This document shows positions 35,374 to 44,930 of a stretch of DNA of 64,000 bases, one piece after another (position 1 is the first letter of the stretch; each line of letters opens with the position of its first letter). The notes under the pieces were generated by a model. It saw nothing but the letters and a program-made list of their open reading frames with translations. It ran no database searches and was not told where the DNA came from. The translations under genes and the position numbers were made by a program. The DNA comes from Steroidobacteraceae bacterium (GTDB taxonomy: Bacteria; Pseudomonadota; Gammaproteobacteria; Steroidobacterales; Steroidobacteraceae): positions 1,627-65,626 of the forward strand of contig DATAYO010000046.1 in the NCBI GenBank assembly GCA_036272515.1, given 5' to 3'.

Positions 35374-35901
35374 ATGTCCGTCAACGCATTCGACGCCGCC
35401 CTGGCCGGAGAGAGTGTCCTCGTCACCGAGACCCGCATGGAAGATCTGCAGCTGCTGGGTCGCGTCGGCAGCACCTCGTTCGTGATTTCCGGATCGCGCC
35501 GCAATTTCTCGCCCGAGAGCCTGAACCCGTACGAGCTCATGGGAGCTGCGCTCGGTTCATCGACGGCCATGACGGTGCGCCGCTATGCGGATCGCATGGA
35601 GCTGCCGCTGGTTCGAGTCCAGGTGAGCGTCTCCCACCACCCGAGCGGAGAACAGAGCAAAGCCGTGTTCGAGCGCAGGATCATCCTGGAGGGCGACGAA
35701 CTCAGCGATGAGCAAAGGCAACGTCTGCTCGATATCGCCGACCACTGTCCGGTGGACCAGACCCTCGCTTATGGAGCCGAGATCCATACCTCCATGAGCA
35801 CCGACCACCAGATCGCGGCGGCGCCGGCGACCTCCGACTATATCCGCGACATCGACGACCGGATCAGCGCCCTGCAGGAGACCTTGTCGCCGACGGAGTA
35901 G
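35374..35901 (+). CDS. OsmC/Ohr-fold protein lacking the first conserved Cys
   Basis: NPYELMGAALGSSTAMTVRRYA (Ser where OsmC has its peroxidatic Cys) and IADHCPVDQTL (second Cys retained). Confidence 0.75.
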   Translation: MSVNAFDAALAGESVLVTETRMEDLQLLGRVGSTSFVISGSRRNFSPESLNPYELMGAALGSSTAMTVRRYADRMELPLVRVQVSVSHHPSGEQSKAVFERRIILEGDELSDEQRQRLLDIADHCPVDQTLAYGAEIHTSMSTDHQIAAAPATSDYIRDIDDRISALQETLSPTE

Positions 35902-35912
35902 ACTCCGGGTCC

Positions 35913-36689
35913 GTGAGGACCGTCACCGCCGTTCGCTACGTCACGCCGCTGCGCGAGGGGGGCTCGTTGCCCGCCATCGTCGAGGCCGATGATGAGGGGC
36001 TGTACGTGCTGAAGTTTCGCGGCGCCGGTCAGGGTCCAAAGGCGCTGATCGCGGAGCTGCTCGCCGGCGAGATCGCCCGCCTGCTGGAATTGCCGGTGCC
36101 GGAAATCGTGTTCATGGAGCTGCCGGTGGAGCTGGCGCGCACCGAGCCGGATGCCGAGATCCAAAGCCTGATCCGGGCGAGCGGCGGTCTGAACATCGCG
36201 CTCGACTATCTGCCGGGGTCCATCACCTTCGATCCGCTGGTCTACGTACCGGATGCCGAGCTGGCCTCGGCCATCGTCTGGTTCGACGCGTTCGTGTGCA
36301 ACGTCGATCGGACGGCTCGAAACGTCAACATGCTGCTGTGGCACCGGCGTCCGTGGCTGATCGACCACGGCGCCGCGCTCTACTTTCATCACGGCTGGAC
36401 CCGCGAGAGCCGCCCCGCGGCGACGCCCTTCCCGATGATCAAGGACCATGTGCTGCTGGGCCTCGCCGCCTCGCTCCTGTGCGCCGACGCCCAGTTGAAG
36501 TCGCGCCTGCCGCCGGACAAGCTCGCGGACCTCGTCGAGCGGATTCCCGGCACCTGGCTCGAGGAGGACAGCGGCTTTTCGCACGCCGCCGAGCAGAGGG
36601 CTGCTTACCTGAGCTTCTTCTACCGGCGTCTCGAGGAATCGGAGGTGTTCGTGCGAGAGGCGATCCGCGCGCGCGCGGCGCAATCATGA
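35913..36689 (+). CDS. HipA-like (PI3/4-kinase-fold) small protein kinase
   Basis: GTG start 11 nt after the OsmC-like stop. Gly-rich loop LKFRGAGQGPK. Catalytic-loop-like NVDRTARNVN (D132, N137) and metal-loop-like LIDHG (D151). 258 aa, no HTH. Confidence 0.65.
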   Translation: MRTVTAVRYVTPLREGGSLPAIVEADDEGLYVLKFRGAGQGPKALIAELLAGEIARLLELPVPEIVFMELPVELARTEPDAEIQSLIRASGGLNIALDYLPGSITFDPLVYVPDAELASAIVWFDAFVCNVDRTARNVNMLLWHRRPWLIDHGAALYFHHGWTRESRPAATPFPMIKDHVLLGLAASLLCADAQLKSRLPPDKLADLVERIPGTWLEEDSGFSHAAEQRAAYLSFFYRRLEESEVFVREAIRARAAQS

Positions 36690-37072
36690 GCGCGCTCTGC
36701 ACTTACGATTACGCGATCGTGCGGGTGGTGCCGCGCGTCGAGCGTGGAGAATTCGTCAATGCCGGCATCATCCTGTCCTGCGACGTGGAGCGGATCCTGC
36801 GGGCGCGAATCGAGCTCGACGAGCGCCGGCTGCTCGCGCTCGAGCCGCATGCCGATCTCGCTCTCATCCGGGATGCGCTGGCGATCATTCCGGCACTGTG
36901 CGCAGGCGGCCCACAGGCCGGACCCCTCGGCGCGATGTCGGAGCGCGAGCGCTTCCACTGGCTGGTCTCGCCCAAGAGCACCATCGTGCAGACATCGCCG
37001 GTGCACACCGGCCGGTGCGCCGATCTCGAAGGAGCGCTCGAGCATTTGATGGCCACCATGGTGCGGCGCTGA
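36686..37072 (+). CDS. DUF3037 domain-containing protein
   Basis: ATGA overlap with the kinase stop. MSALCTYDYAIVRVVPRVERGEFVNAGIILSC...ERERFHWLVSPKSTIVQTSPVHTG matches the DUF3037 pattern. Confidence 0.7.
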   Translation: MSALCTYDYAIVRVVPRVERGEFVNAGIILSCDVERILRARIELDERRLLALEPHADLALIRDALAIIPALCAGGPQAGPLGAMSERERFHWLVSPKSTIVQTSPVHTGRCADLEGALEHLMATMVRR

Positions 37073-37098
37073 CCGGGATCGCGGCGCTGACCGGGATC
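37063..37098. repeat. 18-bp tandem duplication that includes the DUF3037 stop codon
   Basis: gcggcgctgaccgggatc at 37063-37080 (TGA 37070-37072) and again, identical, at 37081-37098. Confidence 0.9.
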
Positions 37099-37125
37099 GC
37101 GCCGCCGGCGGGGATTCGGCGCCGC

Positions 37126-40098
37126 CTACCGGGTCAGGGCCTTGAGCTCGCGAAGCGCGAACTCGAACTCGCCGGTGTGGTCGATTTGCCCCCACTCGGT
37201 CTGCAGGAGCCGCTGCGCCTGAACGCGCTGCCCCATGTTCACGTCGGCCGCCGCCGTGACGGTGGTGAGATAGGTCAGATCGGCGGGCGAATCGGCCCAG
37301 CGCGGCGCGAGCAGGTCCTGGCCGAGTCCCGCGATGGCCGGCGAGTCGCGCCGTGCGATCGCCGCCCAAAGATCGAGCCACGCCTTGTCGGCACCGGTGG
37401 CGTTGCGATAACAGCCGCTCGCCTGCACGCGGCTCCAGAGGGGCTGAAGCTCGGCGGGACTCAAGTAGGGCGCGGTGTCGTCGCTCAAGCTCCGAACGGC
37501 GTCCTGCCATTCGCCGCGCGCCGGTGACGCGCCGGCGCAGGCATCCCCGGCCGTGCCGACGAGCCAGACCGATCGCGCGGTCGCCGGATCCAGCTCCTCG
37601 AGTCTGCCGCTCATCAGCGCCCGGCGGATGTCGAGCGCGCGCTGCACCCGGTGATCGCGGATCACTGCGCTCGCCGCCGAGGGCTCGAGCGTCGCGCCGC
37701 GCGGCGGCCCATGCCCGAGCAGTTCCAGGAAGGGGATGGGCAGCACGGTGAGCGCGGGCAGCTCCTTGGCGTTGGCCTCGAGGTAGCGCAGGCGCGGGGC
37801 ATTCAGATCGACGAAGGGATAGAAATCGGAGTTCGGCGGCACCGCGATCGCATTCAGCAGCGGGCCGATGGTGCGGTTGTCGCCGATCTTGCGCGACGAC
37901 AAGTCGGCGAGCGACTGCACGCCGATGCGCTCGAGCTCCGCCTGAAGCGCGGGTGATTGCAGCAGGCTTGCATCCGGCGTGCGCAATTCGTGGCCCCGCG
38001 TCGCCACGATCAGCACGTCCAGATCATCGACGTTGTAGAGCGCGTAGGCACCGAAGTGAGGACCGAGGGCCTTGACGACCGAGGCCAGGATGCCGAGGTT
38101 GGTCTCGTACAGCTGCATCCACTGCACGAAGTAGCCGTCCGGGGTGAGGTAATGGGTGATCCGGCCATAGAACTCGTCCGAGAACAAGGTCGCGACCCCG
38201 CTCACCCAGGGATTGGAAGGCTCGGAGACGATGAGATCGTAGGGCTGCCGCGTGGTCGCGAAAAAGGTCTTCGCATCCTCGTAGATGATGTGGCTGCGGG
38301 GGTCCTCGAACACATTGTGGATGCGGGCGCCGAAGCCGCGGCGCGCCGCCTCCACCATGAACGGCTCGATCTCGATCGAATCCAGGCTCTTGACCCGTGC
38401 GCTGGTCAGGAGCGTATGAGTCGTCAGTCCCGAGCCGAAACCGATGTTGGCCACCCGCGTCGGAGCCGGGAGCATGCTGAGCGGAATGGCCGCGGCCAGG
38501 ACCATGGTGCTTTCATCGAGGGTCGGCTCTCCCGGACCCATCTGGATGCCCGCGTCGGGCTTGCCGTTGGTGGCAATGGTCACCGTGCCGCCCTTCTCCA
38601 CCAGACTGATGGTGGCGGTCTCGCCGTCCTTGAGATACGCGACCGTCGCTCCTTCGGGAAGCGTCGCCGATCCGGTGCGGTACACGCCCGAGGTCATCCG
38701 CAGCGGATCGAGATTCACGCCCACCGCCACCAGGCCGACCACGCCGAGACAGAGCGCCATGGCGATCCGCGCCGCCGGCGCGACCCGGGGACGCGAGGTC
38801 AGGAGCCGAGACAGTCCCAGGGCAATGTGAATGGCGGCGCCTGCCAGAATCACGCCCTTGAGACCGATGCGCGGCATCAGCAGATGAATCGTCAGCAGCA
38901 CGCCGGCGATGGCGCCCAAGGTATTGGCGGCGTAGATCGTGCCGATGGCGGGCTCGCCGGCCCCACGGCGCATGAGCGCATGCGTCAACAGCGGCAAGGT
39001 CATGCCCGCGCAGAATGTCGCAGGAACCATGATCGAGGCGGCGATCAGCTGGCTGACGAGGTTGAAGCCCACGTAGCCGTCGACGGTGCGCGCATGGGTC
39101 CTCAAAAACCAGGCCATGGAGTCGAAGGTGATGTTGTAGGCCGGCAAGGTCAGGGCCGCCAACGTGCCCATCGCAACCATCACGCCGGCGACGTGCGCCA
39201 CCGGATCCTTGAGCCGCTCGATGCGGCGGCGTACGGCGAGCCCGCCGCAGGCCAGGCCGAAGATGAACGCACTCAGCATCAGCTCGAACGAGTGAGTCGA
39301 GCTGCCGAGCACCAGGCTCAGCATCCGGATCCAGCCGAGCTCGTACATGAAGGAGGCGGCGCCGGTGAGTAAAGCGGCGGTGATCAGCCACCGGCTCGCG
39401 CCGTCGCCGGCCGTCCCGTCGCGGGCCGCCACGGCGCCGGGTACCGGCGGCGGCGCGGGCGCGGGCTCGCTCCGGCCGCGCATCGCCACTCCGACGGCCA
39501 GGGCCAGGACGAGGTTCAGCGTCCCGGCCACGCGAATGGTGCCCGGCAAGCCGACCGCCTCGATCAGCACGAAGCCGCTCACCAGGACGCCGCTCGCGGC
39601 GCCCAGGCTGTTGGTGAAGTACAGCGTGGCGAGCGTTTCACCCGGCCGCTGCGGCCAGCGCCGGATGAGTCCGCCGCTGATCAGCGGAAAGGTCATGCCG
39701 AGCAGCACCGACTGCGGAAAGATCAGCAGCGACCCCAGGGTCCACTTGTAGGCGTGTATCCAGAACGCCGAGGGCAATGCCGGGATGACGGCGGCGAACG
39801 AGAAGTCGTAGGCCCCGACGAAAGCCCGGTGAAAGAGCAGTCCCAGCACGCCGATCATCGCCTCGACCAGGACGTAGGCGCGCAGCAGTCCGCGGATGCG
39901 AGCGGAGCGGCGCGCGATCACCCAGGAACCGAGCGCCATCCCGCCCATGAAAATCGCCAGCACCAGCGATTGCGCATAGGCCGCGTGGCCCAGGAACAGC
40001 TTGAGGTAGTGCGACCAGATCGACTCGTAGATGAGACCGGTGAACCCGGAGACCACGAATATCCCGAGCAGGAAGCGGCGGCGGGCGGCGTCGAGCAT
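37126..40098 (-). CDS. Fused polytopic membrane (MFS-like) / spermidine synthase-like methyltransferase-fold protein with C-terminal helical domain
   Basis: 990 aa. N-terminus MLDAARRRFLLGIFVVSGFTGLIYESIWSHYLKLFLGHAAYAQ is typical of 'fused MFS/spermidine synthase' proteins. Aminopropyltransferase-like core VANIGFGSGLTTHTLL...SIEIEP...YDLIVSEPSNPWVSG. Confidence 0.8.
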   Translation of the reverse strand: MLDAARRRFLLGIFVVSGFTGLIYESIWSHYLKLFLGHAAYAQSLVLAIFMGGMALGSWVIARRSARIRGLLRAYVLVEAMIGVLGLLFHRAFVGAYDFSFAAVIPALPSAFWIHAYKWTLGSLLIFPQSVLLGMTFPLISGGLIRRWPQRPGETLATLYFTNSLGAASGVLVSGFVLIEAVGLPGTIRVAGTLNLVLALAVGVAMRGRSEPAPAPPPVPGAVAARDGTAGDGASRWLITAALLTGAASFMYELGWIRMLSLVLGSSTHSFELMLSAFIFGLACGGLAVRRRIERLKDPVAHVAGVMVAMGTLAALTLPAYNITFDSMAWFLRTHARTVDGYVGFNLVSQLIAASIMVPATFCAGMTLPLLTHALMRRGAGEPAIGTIYAANTLGAIAGVLLTIHLLMPRIGLKGVILAGAAIHIALGLSRLLTSRPRVAPAARIAMALCLGVVGLVAVGVNLDPLRMTSGVYRTGSATLPEGATVAYLKDGETATISLVEKGGTVTIATNGKPDAGIQMGPGEPTLDESTMVLAAAIPLSMLPAPTRVANIGFGSGLTTHTLLTSARVKSLDSIEIEPFMVEAARRGFGARIHNVFEDPRSHIIYEDAKTFFATTRQPYDLIVSEPSNPWVSGVATLFSDEFYGRITHYLTPDGYFVQWMQLYETNLGILASVVKALGPHFGAYALYNVDDLDVLIVATRGHELRTPDASLLQSPALQAELERIGVQSLADLSSRKIGDNRTIGPLLNAIAVPPNSDFYPFVDLNAPRLRYLEANAKELPALTVLPIPFLELLGHGPPRGATLEPSAASAVIRDHRVQRALDIRRALMSGRLEELDPATARSVWLVGTAGDACAGASPARGEWQDAVRSLSDDTAPYLSPAELQPLWSRVQASGCYRNATGADKAWLDLWAAIARRDSPAIAGLGQDLLAPRWADSPADLTYLTTVTAAADVNMGQRVQAQRLLQTEWGQIDHTGEFEFALRELKALTR

Positions 40099-40124: not shown

Positions 40125-40200
40125 GCTGCGTTGCCGTTAACGGGCTGCGTTGCCGTTAACGGGCTGCGTTGCCGTTAACGGGCTGCGTTGCCGTTAAAGG
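40125..40200. repeat. Four tandem 19-bp repeats, each carrying the 10-bp palindrome CCGTTAACGG, in a divergent promoter region
   Basis: gctgcgttgccgttaacgg at 40125, 40144 and 40163; the fourth copy (40182) ends in aaagg. The array lies between gene starts 40098 (minus) and 40359 (plus). Confidence 0.9.
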
Positions 40201-40358
40201 CGAGGCAATGCCCTGTAGGATCCGATTGCCCGCCATTTCACATTGTGTTGATATGGATGCTCTGTGCAGCAGAAGGGGGAATCCAGGCACCTGCGCTCAA
40301 ACTTCGCGTCCCCTGCATTTCAGAACCAACCGCGAGCCCGAGTCGCACGGAGATCTCG

Positions 40359-43300
40359 ATGAGCGAGTCGGAGCTGGGGGACGCCACCGCCCCAACCCCA
40401 GCGGGCGATGCGAAGGATATTTCAGCCCCGGCCGATTTTAGCTCGCGCGCGACGCTGCCTTTTCCGGTCGTGGGGATCGGCGCCTCGGCCGGCGGCATCG
40501 AGGCCTTGCGGCGCTTTTTCTCGAAGGCCTCCGCCACGAGCGGTATGGCGTATGTCGTCATCCTGCATCTATCGCCCGATCACGAAAGCTTGATGGCGGA
40601 GATTTTAGGGCGCAGCGCCCCGATGCCGGTGCATCAGATCGAGGACGGCACGCGCATCGAGCCCAACCACGCGTACGTCATCCGCCCGGGACATACCGTC
40701 ACCTTGGAAGGCGATCGGCTCTTCTTGGGCGTGCCTTTGCAGCAGCGGGGCCACCGCCGCCCGGTGGACGATTTCTTCAGGTCGCTCGCCAAGGTGCAGC
40801 AAGAGAAGGCCATCGCGGTCGTCCTGTCCGGGATGGGCACCAACGGCACCGCCGGTGCACAGGCGATCAAGGCCGCGGGGGGCTTGTGCGTGGCCCAAAA
40901 TCCGGAGGAAGCGGAATTTCCCAGCATGGCGCGAAGCCTCATCCATGCAGGCTATGCCGATAAGGTCCTCGACATCGAGCAGATCCCCGCGTTCCTGCAG
41001 CGCTTCGTGCATCATCCCTATCTGCAACTCGATCGGATCGGCGGGCGGCAGGCGGCGCAAGAGCTCGAGTTTCATCGCGAGCGGCTGCAGGAGGTCTTGG
41101 CCCTGGTGCGCATTCGCACGGGACATGACTTCGCTCCTTACAAGACTCCCACGGTGGTGCGGCGAATTCAGCGTCGCATGGGGGTGACGGGATCGAAGGA
41201 GATCAAGTCCTACCTGGAATTCCTCAAGTCTCATGGCGCCGAAGCCGAGGCCCTCGCCAACGATTTGATGATCAACGTGACCGGATTTTTTCGCGACGCG
41301 GATGCGTGGGAGGCGTTGCGGACCGCAGTCATCCGCCCGATGGTTGAAAGCCGGGGGACGAACGAGCCGATTCGCGCCTGGGTCGCCGCGTGCGCGAGCG
41401 GTGAGGAGGCCTACACGCTTGCCATGGTGATTTCGGAAGAAGCGGCACGGCTGCACAAGAAACTCGAAGTGAAGATTTTTGCGACCGATACGGCCGACAA
41501 GGCTCTCGGCTTTGCGCGCGCCGGCATCTATCCCGGCGGCATCGAAGCGGACTTCACGCCGGAGCGCCTTGCGCGATTCTTCGACAAGGACGAGCACACC
41601 TACCGGATCAAGAAGGAGATCCGCGAGCAGGTGGTGTTCGCACCTCAGGATGTGCTGCGCGATCCGCCCTTCTCCCGCGTCGATGTGGTGACGTGCCGAA
41701 ACTTGCTCATTTACCTGGAGGCCGGCGCGCAGCGCCGCGCTCTCACCCTGATGCATTTCGCTCTCCTGGATGGCGGCTATCTCTTCCTGGGCAATGCCGA
41801 AACGTTGGGTCAGGCGGAAGATCTCTTCGAGGTAGTGAGCAAGCGCTGGCGCATCTACCGGCGCACCGGCCCCGCTCAACATCGCGTCGTGGACCTGGCA
41901 GCGCTCCGCGTCCCGGCATTTCGGGCGCTTCCAGGTGTTCCCGAGCCCGTCGCTTCGCCACGCCCGGCCGCAACGGTCGCTCTGCAGCTGGCGCTGCTGG
42001 AGGCGACCGCGCCGGCGACCGCCCTCGTCGATGGCAACGAGCGCCTCGTGTATTTCCAGGGATCGGCCGAACCCTACCTCACGCATCCTTCCGGGGAGAT
42101 CAGCATGAGCCTGCTCGACTCGGTGCGAGCATCGTTGCGGCCGGTGGTGAGGACTGCCTTGCGTCAAGCCATCGCGGAGAAGCGCGCGGTCCGGATCGAA
42201 CAAGCGCTCGTTGGCGAGAGCGGCGGTCTCATCCGCATCACGGCGGCGCCGCTTCGACCGACCGGCGCCGTATCGCACTATCGCGTGAGCTTCGAGCCGA
42301 TGACGGAGCAACCGGTCGACGTGGTCACCGTGCACCGCCCTTCGTCCGCCGTCGCCGACGAGGCACTGGAAGAAGAGGTTCGCGGCTTGAAGCGGGATCT
42401 TCAGACCCACGTCGAGGCCTTCGAGGCGACGAACGAGGAGCTCAAGGCCTCCAACGAAGAAGTGATGTCGATCAATGAGGAATTGCGGAGCACGAACGAG
42501 GAGCTCGAGACCGGCAAGGAGGAATTGCAGTCGCTCAATGAGGAACTGACCACCGTCAACACGCAGCTGCAGAACAAGCTCTTCGAGCTGGAGGCGTTGA
42601 CCAACGACCTGGATAACCTCTTGAGCAGCACCGATATCGCCGTGGTCTTTCTCGACACCCAGTTGAACGTGCGCCGTTTCACGCCGTCGATCAACGATCT
42701 GCTGACGCTGATCCCCGCCGACGTCGGCCGGCCGCTCGCGCATCTGGCGCAAAAGTTTACCGACGGCGATTTGATCGCCGATGCGGCGCAGGTACTGGCG
42801 AAGCTCGTGCCGCGCGAATCCGAGGTCCTCAGCCACAGTAGACGCTGGTACCTGCGTCGCACGCTGCCCTATCGCACCGAGGACAATCGCATCGCGGGCG
42901 TCGTGATCACCTTCATCGACATCACCGCACGCAAACAGGCCGAGCAGGCAATTCTTACGGTCCAGGAGCGCCTGCAGGCGGCGATCGAGCAGATGCCCGC
43001 CGCGGTACTGATGGTCGAAGCCCCGTCCGGAAAGCTCGTGCTCGCCAATCGCCAGGCCGCCGCGTTGTTCAACCAGCCCTTTCCGCCGCCCTATCTGGGC
43101 CAGAACTGGGTGGCGACCTATTCTGCGTTTCGCGGATTTCACGCCGACGGCCGCCCCTATGAGCCCGCCGAATGGCCCCTCGCGCGGGCACTGGCTGCGG
43201 GTGAAGTGGTGATCGATGAGGAAATGGGGTTTGTTCGCCCCGATGGCTCGCCGGGCACGTTGTCGATGAGCACCTCGCCGACCCGAAATGCCGCCGGCGC

Positions 43301-44930
43301 ATTGATTGCCGTGGTCGCCGCCTTTTGGGACATCACCGAGCGCAAACGCGCGCAGGCGGTCTTGAGAGAAAGCGAGGAACGTCTGCGCCTGCTGATCGCG
43401 AGCGCCCACGACTATGCGATTTTCATGCTCGACGCGCAGGCTCGCATCACCAGCTGGAACAGCGGCGCCGAGCAGGTCACGGGATATCGCGAGGAGGACA
43501 TCCTCGGGCAATCCATCGCGGTGCTGTTCACGGCCGAGGATCGCGCCGCCCGCATTCCCGAGCAGGAGATCGAGCGGGCGGCGGACACCGGAAGCGCGCT
43601 CGATGAGCGCTGGCACCTGCGCAAGGACGGCAGCCGCTTTTGGGCGAGCGGGGTCATGACCGCGGCCCGTGCTGCAGATGGGAACCCGAAGGGGTTCGTG
43701 AAAATCATGCGTGACAACACCGAGCGCAAAGCGACCGAGGAGCGTCTGCAGGAAGCGCTCGCCTGGGCGCAGCAGCATCGAAACGCCGCGGAAAGCGCCA
43801 ATCGCGCCAAGGATGAATTCATCTCGACCGTGAGTCATGAGCTGCGCACGCCCTTGAATACCATCCGAGTGTGGTCACGTTTGCTCATGAGCGGGAAGAT
43901 CGAGGGAGCCGATATCATCAAGGGGGGCGAGACAATCGATCGTGCCGCCTTGTCGCAGCAACAATTGATCGATGACCTCCTCGATGTCTCGCGCATGGCC
44001 ACCGGGCACTTGCGCTTGGCGATGCGCGATACCTTTCTCATCAGCATGGTCGAAGCGGCCATCGAGACCGTGCGCCCACTCGCCCACTCTCGCGATATCA
44101 GCCTGGAAGCCGATTTGAGCCCGGAGGTCGGCATCGTGCACGCGGATCCCGACCGCCTGCAGCAAGTGATCTTGAACCTGCTCGCGAACGCGGTGAAATT
44201 CAGCTCGACGGGCGGACGGATCGAGGTTTCCCTGCGGCGTTTGAACGAGCAGAGAGTGGAAATCGGCGTGAAGGATTACGGAATGGGCATCCGTGCCGAC
44301 TTCCTGCCGCATGTGTTCGATCGCTTTCGCCAGGCGGAGGCCGGTGCGGATCGCCGCTATAACGGCTTGGGACTGGGTCTTGCCATCGCCCATCAGCTCG
44401 TGGAGCTGCACGGGGGCGCCATCAGTGCGCACTCCGCCGCCGAGGGACAGGGCGCGACCTTCATCATCGATCTACCCCTCCAGAGGCGCTACCCCGCGAT
44501 TGAACCCGAAGCGGCGACACGAGAGATCAAGAATGGGAATGATTTGCGTGGCCTCGAGGTGCTGCTGGTCGAGGATGACACGTTGACGCGCGAGGCGACG
44601 CAGCGGCTCCTCGAACAATGTGGTGCTCAAGTGCGCGCCGTGAACTCGGCCTCGCGGGCCCGCGAGGCCTTCGAAATTCGCCCTCCCAATCTGATCGTGG
44701 CGGATATCGGCATGCCCGGAGAGGATGGCAATGCGTTTCTGAAATGGTTGCGCCAAATCGAACAGGAACAGGGTTCTTCCCGCGTACCGGCAGTCGCGGT
44801 CACCGCCTTTGCCCGAGCCGAAGATCGGGAACGCAGCCTGAAGGCAGGGTTTGACGATCATTTGCCGAAGCCGGTCGATCCGGACCGGCTGATCCGCGTG
44901 CTGGCACAGCTCGCCGCCAAAGCCCGGTAA
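40359..44930 (+). CDS. CheB methylesterase - CheR methyltransferase - coiled coil/PAS x3 - HisKA - HATPase - receiver fusion (hybrid sensor kinase)
   Basis: Start at ATG 40359 (MSESELGD...). CheB-type PVVGIGASAGGIEAL...VLSGMGTNGTAG. CheR-type RAWVAACASGEEAYTLAM...CRNLLIYL. Leu-zipper-like NEELKASNEEVMSINEELRSTNEELETGKEELQSLNEEL. H-box STVSHELRTPLNTI. G-box GLGLGLAIAHQLVELHGG. Receiver LLVEDD...ADIGMPGEDG...KP. Confidence 0.9.
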   Translation: MSESELGDATAPTPAGDAKDISAPADFSSRATLPFPVVGIGASAGGIEALRRFFSKASATSGMAYVVILHLSPDHESLMAEILGRSAPMPVHQIEDGTRIEPNHAYVIRPGHTVTLEGDRLFLGVPLQQRGHRRPVDDFFRSLAKVQQEKAIAVVLSGMGTNGTAGAQAIKAAGGLCVAQNPEEAEFPSMARSLIHAGYADKVLDIEQIPAFLQRFVHHPYLQLDRIGGRQAAQELEFHRERLQEVLALVRIRTGHDFAPYKTPTVVRRIQRRMGVTGSKEIKSYLEFLKSHGAEAEALANDLMINVTGFFRDADAWEALRTAVIRPMVESRGTNEPIRAWVAACASGEEAYTLAMVISEEAARLHKKLEVKIFATDTADKALGFARAGIYPGGIEADFTPERLARFFDKDEHTYRIKKEIREQVVFAPQDVLRDPPFSRVDVVTCRNLLIYLEAGAQRRALTLMHFALLDGGYLFLGNAETLGQAEDLFEVVSKRWRIYRRTGPAQHRVVDLAALRVPAFRALPGVPEPVASPRPAATVALQLALLEATAPATALVDGNERLVYFQGSAEPYLTHPSGEISMSLLDSVRASLRPVVRTALRQAIAEKRAVRIEQALVGESGGLIRITAAPLRPTGAVSHYRVSFEPMTEQPVDVVTVHRPSSAVADEALEEEVRGLKRDLQTHVEAFEATNEELKASNEEVMSINEELRSTNEELETGKEELQSLNEELTTVNTQLQNKLFELEALTNDLDNLLSSTDIAVVFLDTQLNVRRFTPSINDLLTLIPADVGRPLAHLAQKFTDGDLIADAAQVLAKLVPRESEVLSHSRRWYLRRTLPYRTEDNRIAGVVITFIDITARKQAEQAILTVQERLQAAIEQMPAAVLMVEAPSGKLVLANRQAAALFNQPFPPPYLGQNWVATYSAFRGFHADGRPYEPAEWPLARALAAGEVVIDEEMGFVRPDGSPGTLSMSTSPTRNAAGALIAVVAAFWDITERKRAQAVLRESEERLRLLIASAHDYAIFMLDAQARITSWNSGAEQVTGYREEDILGQSIAVLFTAEDRAARIPEQEIERAADTGSALDERWHLRKDGSRFWASGVMTAARAADGNPKGFVKIMRDNTERKATEERLQEALAWAQQHRNAAESANRAKDEFISTVSHELRTPLNTIRVWSRLLMSGKIEGADIIKGGETIDRAALSQQQLIDDLLDVSRMATGHLRLAMRDTFLISMVEAAIETVRPLAHSRDISLEADLSPEVGIVHADPDRLQQVILNLLANAVKFSSTGGRIEVSLRRLNEQRVEIGVKDYGMGIRADFLPHVFDRFRQAEAGADRRYNGLGLGLAIAHQLVELHGGAISAHSAAEGQGATFIIDLPLQRRYPAIEPEAATREIKNGNDLRGLEVLLVEDDTLTREATQRLLEQCGAQVRAVNSASRAREAFEIRPPNLIVADIGMPGEDGNAFLKWLRQIEQEQGSSRVPAVAVTAFARAEDRERSLKAGFDDHLPKPVDPDRLIRVLAQLAAKAR

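Follow-up and report, generated by a model that had tools for sequence, protein, structure and literature searches.

A HipA_2-family kinase and its overlapping DUF3037-only partner in a Steroidobacteraceae genome: a putative short-partner relative of the PDC-M66 and DS-6/HipAD anti-phage pairs

What kind of system is encoded by three tightly packed genes in the metagenome-assembled genome of a bacterium of the family Steroidobacteraceae, and how many of the three belong to it? The genes, for an OsmC-like protein, a HipA-like kinase and a DUF3037 protein, occupy positions 35374–37072 of a stretch of 64,000 nucleotides from contig DATAYO010000046.1 (assembly GCA_036272515.1), hereafter called the window. 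A first-pass annotation of the sequence had grouped them into one module, a candidate uncharacterised kinase-based toxin-antitoxin or conflict system. The analysis reported here leads to a functional unit of two genes, the kinase and the DUF3037 gene, because DUF3037 is invariably found downstream of the kinase whereas OsmC and the other neighbours are not conserved. The best reading of this pair, which by analogy with tested relatives we consider slightly more probable than its negation, is that of a toxic kinase restrained by its DUF3037 partner. The features of the locus are the following:

35374..35901, + strand: OsmC-like gene, 175 amino acids (Pfam OsmC, E = 1.1e-10)
35902..35912, + strand: spacer of 11 nucleotides between the OsmC stop codon and the kinase GTG (sequence read)
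35913..36689, + strand: HipA_2-family Ser/Thr kinase, 258 amino acids, GTG start, predicted effector (Pfam HipA_2, PADLOC PDC-M66A)
36686..36689, + strand: ATGA, overlap of the kinase stop and the DUF3037 start (sequence read)
36686..37072, + strand: DUF3037-only partner, 128 amino acids, predicted kinase-binding restrainer (Pfam DUF3037, PADLOC PDC-M66B)

The close packing of the three same-strand genes, with an 11-nucleotide gap and an ATGA overlap, had been correctly described, as seen from the list of open reading frames and from the sequence itself. The OsmC gene ends with a TAG codon at 35899–35901, the kinase gene begins with GTG at 35913, and a GGAG sits 14 nucleotides 5' of this start. 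The ATGA overlap is predicted to couple the translation of the kinase and the DUF3037 protein; in homologues the two genes overlap by 4 or 23 nucleotides. Scans for promoters, terminators, Rfam families and inverted repeats yielded nothing informative.

The product of the middle gene is assigned as a kinase because it matches the Pfam family HipA_2, carries invariant catalytic motifs, aligns with the catalytic residue D139 of DS-6A, the kinase of the DS-6/HipAD system described below, and gives a weak fold match. The match to HipA_2 (PF20613, "HipA-like kinase") has an E-value of 2.1e-16 and a score of 60.4 bits, the Pfam cut-off for this family being 27 bits, and the match to the PADLOC profile PDC-M66A has an E-value of 4e-22 and a score of 76.7 bits, while DS-6A scores 53 bits. 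The Gly-rich loop comprises residues 33–43, and the motif residues include K34, D132, N137 and D151-H152-G153. Conservation was scored in two sets, one of 18 close homologues and one of 79 homologues at species level, and in either set K34, G37, G39, G41, D132, N137 and D151-H152-G153 show at least 97% conservation; the Gly-rich loop, D132, N137 and D151 from which a HipA-like kinase with intact catalytic motifs had been proposed are therefore genuine, conserved features of the family. The window kinase and DS-6A share 30% identity (E = 7e-15; hhalign probability 98% over 207 columns), D132 being aligned to D139, and N137 and D151 are invariant. Using the single-chain AlphaFold2 (AF2) model of the kinase, Foldseek returned as best match the Helicobacter pylori Ser/Thr kinase CtkA (3akl; probability 0.98, template modelling score 0.45), with which no similarity exists at the sequence level; CtkA is a secreted, virulence-associated kinase for which no DUF3037 partner is known. 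Searches of the PDB by profile and by sequence with the kinase family gave no real match, and the NCBIfam search of the three proteins added nothing. NCBI labels the two proteins "HipA family kinase" and "DUF3037 domain-containing protein", respectively.

The 128-residue partner matches the Pfam family DUF3037 (PF11236) over the full length of the model (E = 3.7e-41, 140.5 bits), and no helix-turn-helix (HTH) was found in any of the three proteins, in agreement with the earlier description of a kinase without an HTH and of a typical DUF3037 protein without a visible DNA-binding motif. Its match to the PADLOC profile PDC-M66B (1.2e-8) is limited to profile positions 3–128 of 281, and it spans only positions 4–130 of the 279-position phage family phrog_5137, whereas DS-6B, the partner of DS-6A, spans PDC-M66B from end to end (positions 6–271). 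The window partner consequently lacks the C-terminal domain of approximately 150 residues present in DS-6B and PDC-M66B, and with it the two-domain organization of approximately 275–281 residues. Within the DUF3037 family, 24 residues are at least 97% conserved, and many of the invariant ones are polar (R13, R20, E22, N25, R89, S98, Q102, S104, H107). Foldseek found no PDB fold match for the moderate-quality DUF3037 model. The divergences of kinase and partner correlate with each other (r = 0.67, 3081 pairs).

The association of the two genes was followed through bacterial genomes by a scan with strict peptide patterns, one genome per species, in which at least 594 of 185,579 species were matched; gene neighbourhoods were then surveyed in the best 80 species loci. 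Adjacency is evaluable in 78 of these, the other two being contig ends, and in all 78, from at least eight phyla, a DUF3037 open reading frame is located directly downstream of the kinase on the same strand. Such adjacency is far beyond chance, and the recurrence of kinase and DUF3037 as neighbours, which had been put forward earlier, is established as that of a conserved, overlapping two-gene unit. The best 80 loci show 58–79% identity and span Pseudomonadota, Acidobacteriota, Cyanobacteria, Chloroflexota, Bacteroidota, Myxococcota, Nitrospirota and Ignavibacteriota. In the protein database, each of the two proteins is represented by more than 8000 clusters at 90% identity; the best 120 clusters have at least 72–74% identity, with kinases of approximately 258–268 residues and partners of 128–139 residues. 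The kinase with a short DUF3037 partner also occurs in Bacteroides and Streptomyces at 43–53% kinase identity, the short form of the partner being kept down to 43% (Streptomyces). Apart from ubiquitous superfamilies, the flanks revealed no third gene and no functional theme common to the loci: the flanking genes show no strand preference and, among 135 flanking proteins, each Pfam family occurs at most four times.

The pair is already catalogued, as the candidate system PDC-M66 of PADLOC-DB, which has the same architecture as the window pair and whose PDC-M66B profile, with its 281 positions, represents the long form of the partner. Homologues were moreover tested in 2025–2026, and the statement that no experimental characterisation was known is out of date (PMC12548924; PMC13092281). 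In the Retron-Sda1 operon, a HipA-like kinase and a DUF3037 protein constitute a standalone defence against phage Bas51; deletion of the kinase abolishes defence whereas deletion of the DUF3037 gene is toxic (PMC12548924). The DefensePredictor system DS-6, renamed HipAD, is composed of the kinase DS-6A and the DUF3037+DUF1829 protein DS-6B (DeWeirdt, Mahoney & Laub, Science 2026, PMC13092281). The catalytic mutant D139A of DS-6A loses defence, and AlphaFold3 predicts an interaction between A and B and a weaker one between B and DNA (PMC13092281). The idea of a kinase-based toxin with a neutralising partner acting in conflict has thus fared well, at least for the relatives, which behave in this way and do so as anti-phage defence (PMC12548924; PMC13092281). 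Because these relatives are validated anti-phage systems, the pairing of kinase and DUF3037 is no longer an open question.

Comparison with these systems delimits what the window pair shares with them. Three characteristics of PDC-M66 and DS-6 are found in the window: a HipA_2/PDC-M66A kinase, a downstream, overlapping DUF3037 gene on the same strand, and the catalytic Asp followed by N and D-H-G. In DS-6/HipAD, which originates from an Escherichia coli prophage, the HipA_2 kinase likewise precedes a DUF3037-containing partner with a stop/start overlap (4 nucleotides in DS-6), and both kinases have approximately 250 residues and no HTH. The partners differ: DS-6B, of 275 residues, combines DUF3037 with the C-terminal domain mentioned above (which matches DUF1829 weakly and is predicted to be DNA-binding), whereas the window partner consists of DUF3037 only, so that the DNA-binding or autoregulatory function suggested for DS-6B's C-terminal half is missing here. 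In Retron-Sda1, the partner's C-terminal region resembles the DNA-binding proteins of type III-A1 retrons, whereas the window locus has neither a retron nor a defence context. The distribution differs as well. DS-6-type kinases are abundant on viral contigs, with 60 loci in IMG/VR and a partner of 271–286 residues containing both domains in 57 of 59 cases, whereas the window type resides on chromosomes and is conserved to a much greater degree. The window module is a distinct subfamily, characterized by its DUF3037-only partner, chromosomal location and very high conservation.

What the comparisons establish directly for the pair is homology to the tested systems, conservation of the catalytic residues, invariant gene order with overlap, and co-variation of kinase and partner. 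The manner in which the pair would work we infer from DS-6/HipAD and the Retron-Sda1 pair, and this applies alike to toxicity, neutralisation by direct binding, trigger and target. By this analogy the kinase would be a growth-arresting effector, which the DUF3037 protein would bind and hold inactive; a trigger, for example infection by a phage or some other insult, would release the kinase, and the freed kinase would phosphorylate an essential target. The DUF3037 domain is the probable kinase-binding element, because it is the bare domain that is always kept next to the kinase; in the long-form partners, DNA binding, autoregulation or sensing would then be contributed by the C-terminal domain.

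Several observations weigh against such a toxic kinase and its restraining partner. The tested systems are distant from the window pair, as the identity to the DS-6 type amounts to 30% for the kinase and to approximately 20% for the DUF3037 domain (where the hhalign probability is only 44%), and the tested relatives have a two-domain partner, unlike the window. The window partner has no DNA-binding domain for autoregulation, and the structure models are mediocre (predicted local distance difference test, pLDDT, of 65 and predicted template modelling score of 0.69 for the kinase; pLDDT of 67 for DUF3037). The window-type kinase has no match in 50,697 phage records, no close match in IMG/VR and only seven matches in 72,556 plasmid records, all of them on megaplasmids or chromids. 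The 135 flanking proteins are of housekeeping type with very few matches to defence models. As many as 75 residues of the kinase reach a conservation of at least 97% across phyla, which is atypical of a toxin-antitoxin or defence gene, and the between-phylum identity of the concatenated pair (0.55–0.66, that is 55–66%) is barely below the within-group values. Among Steroidobacteraceae the pair diverges at the same rate (78–86%) as its syntenic neighbours, and its inheritance is mainly vertical. Slow, core-gene-like conservation of this kind is unlike the usual appearance of fast-turnover defence or toxin-antitoxin genes.

Several of these observations also speak for the main competing explanation, which we regard as possible but doubtful: the short-partner subfamily may be a conserved physiological kinase/regulator module in which DUF3037 would be an obligate regulatory subunit, an activator or a substrate, and DS-6, the type carried by prophages, would be a weaponised branch derived from it by acquisition of the C-terminal domain. 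The 75 kinase and 24 DUF3037 residues under strong conservation, the narrow range of between-phylum identities, the nearest neighbour of the pair, which in 63 of 75 cases comes from its own taxon, the divergence rate equal to that of the syntenic genes, the near-absence from mobile genomes, the housekeeping flanks and the sheer number of protein clusters all fit this explanation. It has to be set against the fact that the sole tested homologues are defence systems in which loss of the partner is toxic; moreover, the distribution over the scanned species is patchy, the genomic context varies without any linked pathway, at least one recent inter-phylum transfer (at 92% identity) appears to have occurred, and toxin-antitoxin pairs typically have just such a layout of two overlapping genes. 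The historical form of the proposal, according to which the short-partner pair is an ancient, slowly evolving, mainly vertically transmitted chromosomal module of physiological function, present in at least eight phyla, with DS-6/HipAD as a derived branch, is rather unlikely in our estimation; if true, the pair would be the housekeeping ancestor of an immune system.

Membership of the canonical HipBA or HipBST toxin-antitoxin families, the architecture invoked in the first-pass annotation, does not hold up and is given next to no credence here. The NCBI label "HipA family kinase" and the D-x4-N ... D-x-G motif layout would suggest it. However, the Pfam search of the window kinase gave neither HipA_C nor Couple_hipA, which are the families matched by E. 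coli HipA, itself without a match to HipA_2, and no similarity to E. coli HipA was detected by hhalign (probability 0.2%, obtained with shallow profiles, effective number of sequences 1.5, with which a remote, clan-level relationship could be missed). An HTH, a HipB gene and a HipS-like gene are all absent, and the partner, for whose model no PDB fold was matched, is encoded downstream, whereas the HipBA antitoxin is an upstream HTH protein. Canonical HipBA was rejected in view of the upstream gene, which is OsmC-like instead of encoding the HTH antitoxin HipB, and HipBST (hipB-hipS-hipT, in which HipS resembles the N-terminal subdomain of HipA) in view of its different gene order and domains. 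The Gly-rich loop of the window kinase (RGAGQGPK) is furthermore devoid of Ser or Thr, unlike that of HipBA/HipBST. What is shared with these systems is the general logic, in which a toxin that is a Ser/Thr kinase is neutralised by a small protein encoded next to it and co-translated with it. A system of three genes, with the OsmC-like protein as sensor or accessory component, is likewise very improbable. The 11-nucleotide spacer in the window, the 4-nucleotide overlap of the OsmC and kinase genes in one relative (L006) and the preservation in four orthologous loci of an OsmC with the same Cys-to-Ser substitution and C-terminal tail argue for it. Against it, among more than 80 other loci OsmC is found upstream of the kinase in only three (L006, L007 and L054), all of them from the closest Steroidobacteraceae relatives, while elsewhere its position is taken by other tightly linked genes (CorA, DUF480, Na+/H+ exchanger, UDG, PfkB, M50 peptidase, TonB, histidine kinase); half of the genes upstream are encoded in the opposite direction, and DS-6 and PDC-M66 are two-gene systems. 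The OsmC gene, which had been counted as part of the module, is a lineage-specific local neighbour outside it, probably co-transcribed with the pair in this Steroidobacteraceae lineage.

Returning to the proposed toxic kinase with its DUF3037 restrainer, the interest of the window pair resides in the very large size of its subfamily, in a partner pared down to the bare DUF3037 domain, and in an evolution resembling that of a core gene, unlike that of a defence gene. The short-partner pair thereby offers a minimal system for learning the function of the DUF3037 domain, and allows a test of whether a family of defence toxins and antitoxins has a conserved non-defence counterpart. Such experiments are straightforward because culturable hosts carry the pair, among them Stenotrophomonas rhizophila, Lysobacter cavernae, Spirosoma endophyticum and Bacteroides finegoldii.

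As regards the surroundings of the pair, the genes conserved in synteny among Steroidobacteraceae are GGDEF/EAL, SGL, OsmC, kinase and DUF3037, followed by MarR and OEP. The window flanks consist of signalling, transport and MarR genes, with no tRNA, GC anomaly or defence match, and neither the window nor any of the 80 species loci showed a mobile-element context or a defence island, the location envisaged earlier. On plasmids, the partner was again a short DUF3037 in each case examined. The pair is 92% identical between Enhygromyxa salina (L022) and Pseudoxanthomonas sp. (L015), which indicates, judging from this identity, that a module otherwise inherited vertically has recently been transferred between phyla.

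The OsmC-like protein itself has an OsmC domain with only one of the two catalytic cysteines of OsmC/Ohr peroxiredoxins. Where E. coli OsmC has Cys59, the window protein and its three orthologues (four out of four) have Ser, and the Cys of the "CPV" motif is retained; the substitution of the peroxidatic Cys with preservation of the second one had been correctly noticed. A C-terminal tail of approximately 35 residues (SDYIRDIDDRISALQE) is common to the four orthologues. The nearest PDB relative of the protein is the OsmC domain of a 400-residue protein (9wo1).

Downstream of the pair, a tandem repeat with an 18-nucleotide unit occupies window positions 37063–37133, with 2.4 near-perfect copies at 37063–37105 and up to 3.8 copies if degenerate ones are included. 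It starts in the last DUF3037 codons, duplicates the TGA stop and extends to the 3' end of a convergent gene (37126–40098, − strand). The latter encodes a multi-pass membrane protein of 990 residues, conserved at 78% in L007, whose central domain is spermidine-synthase-like; a weak match to the PADLOC model "mad2" is limited to the methyltransferase-like domain. Positions 40188–44930 encode a 1580-residue CheB-CheR-PAS-histidine kinase-receiver hybrid, for which no counterpart was found in L006 and L007, two relatives with conserved synteny whose MarR gene is nearer to the module.

Candidate single-polypeptide fusions of kinase and DUF3037 among the cluster representatives (P0328, P0364, P0388, P0294 and others) were rejected as evidence, as they look like frameshift read-throughs. 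In most of these candidates the C-terminus of the kinase is unmatched, which suggests frameshifted metagenomic read-through; P0364 could be genuine.

Finally, on a linear plasmid of Streptomyces sp. 2P-4 (L090, 4028–5169), the pair is located between polyketide synthase/phosphopantetheinyl transferase genes and ccrA, beside facT, a gene for elfamycin efflux, and a TetR gene. To judge from these genes, the pair in this plasmid appears to lie inside an elfamycin-type polyketide cluster, and the same arrangement is expected for the match in S. globosus (H7). Since elfamycins target EF-Tu, this location could provide a hint to the target of the kinase.

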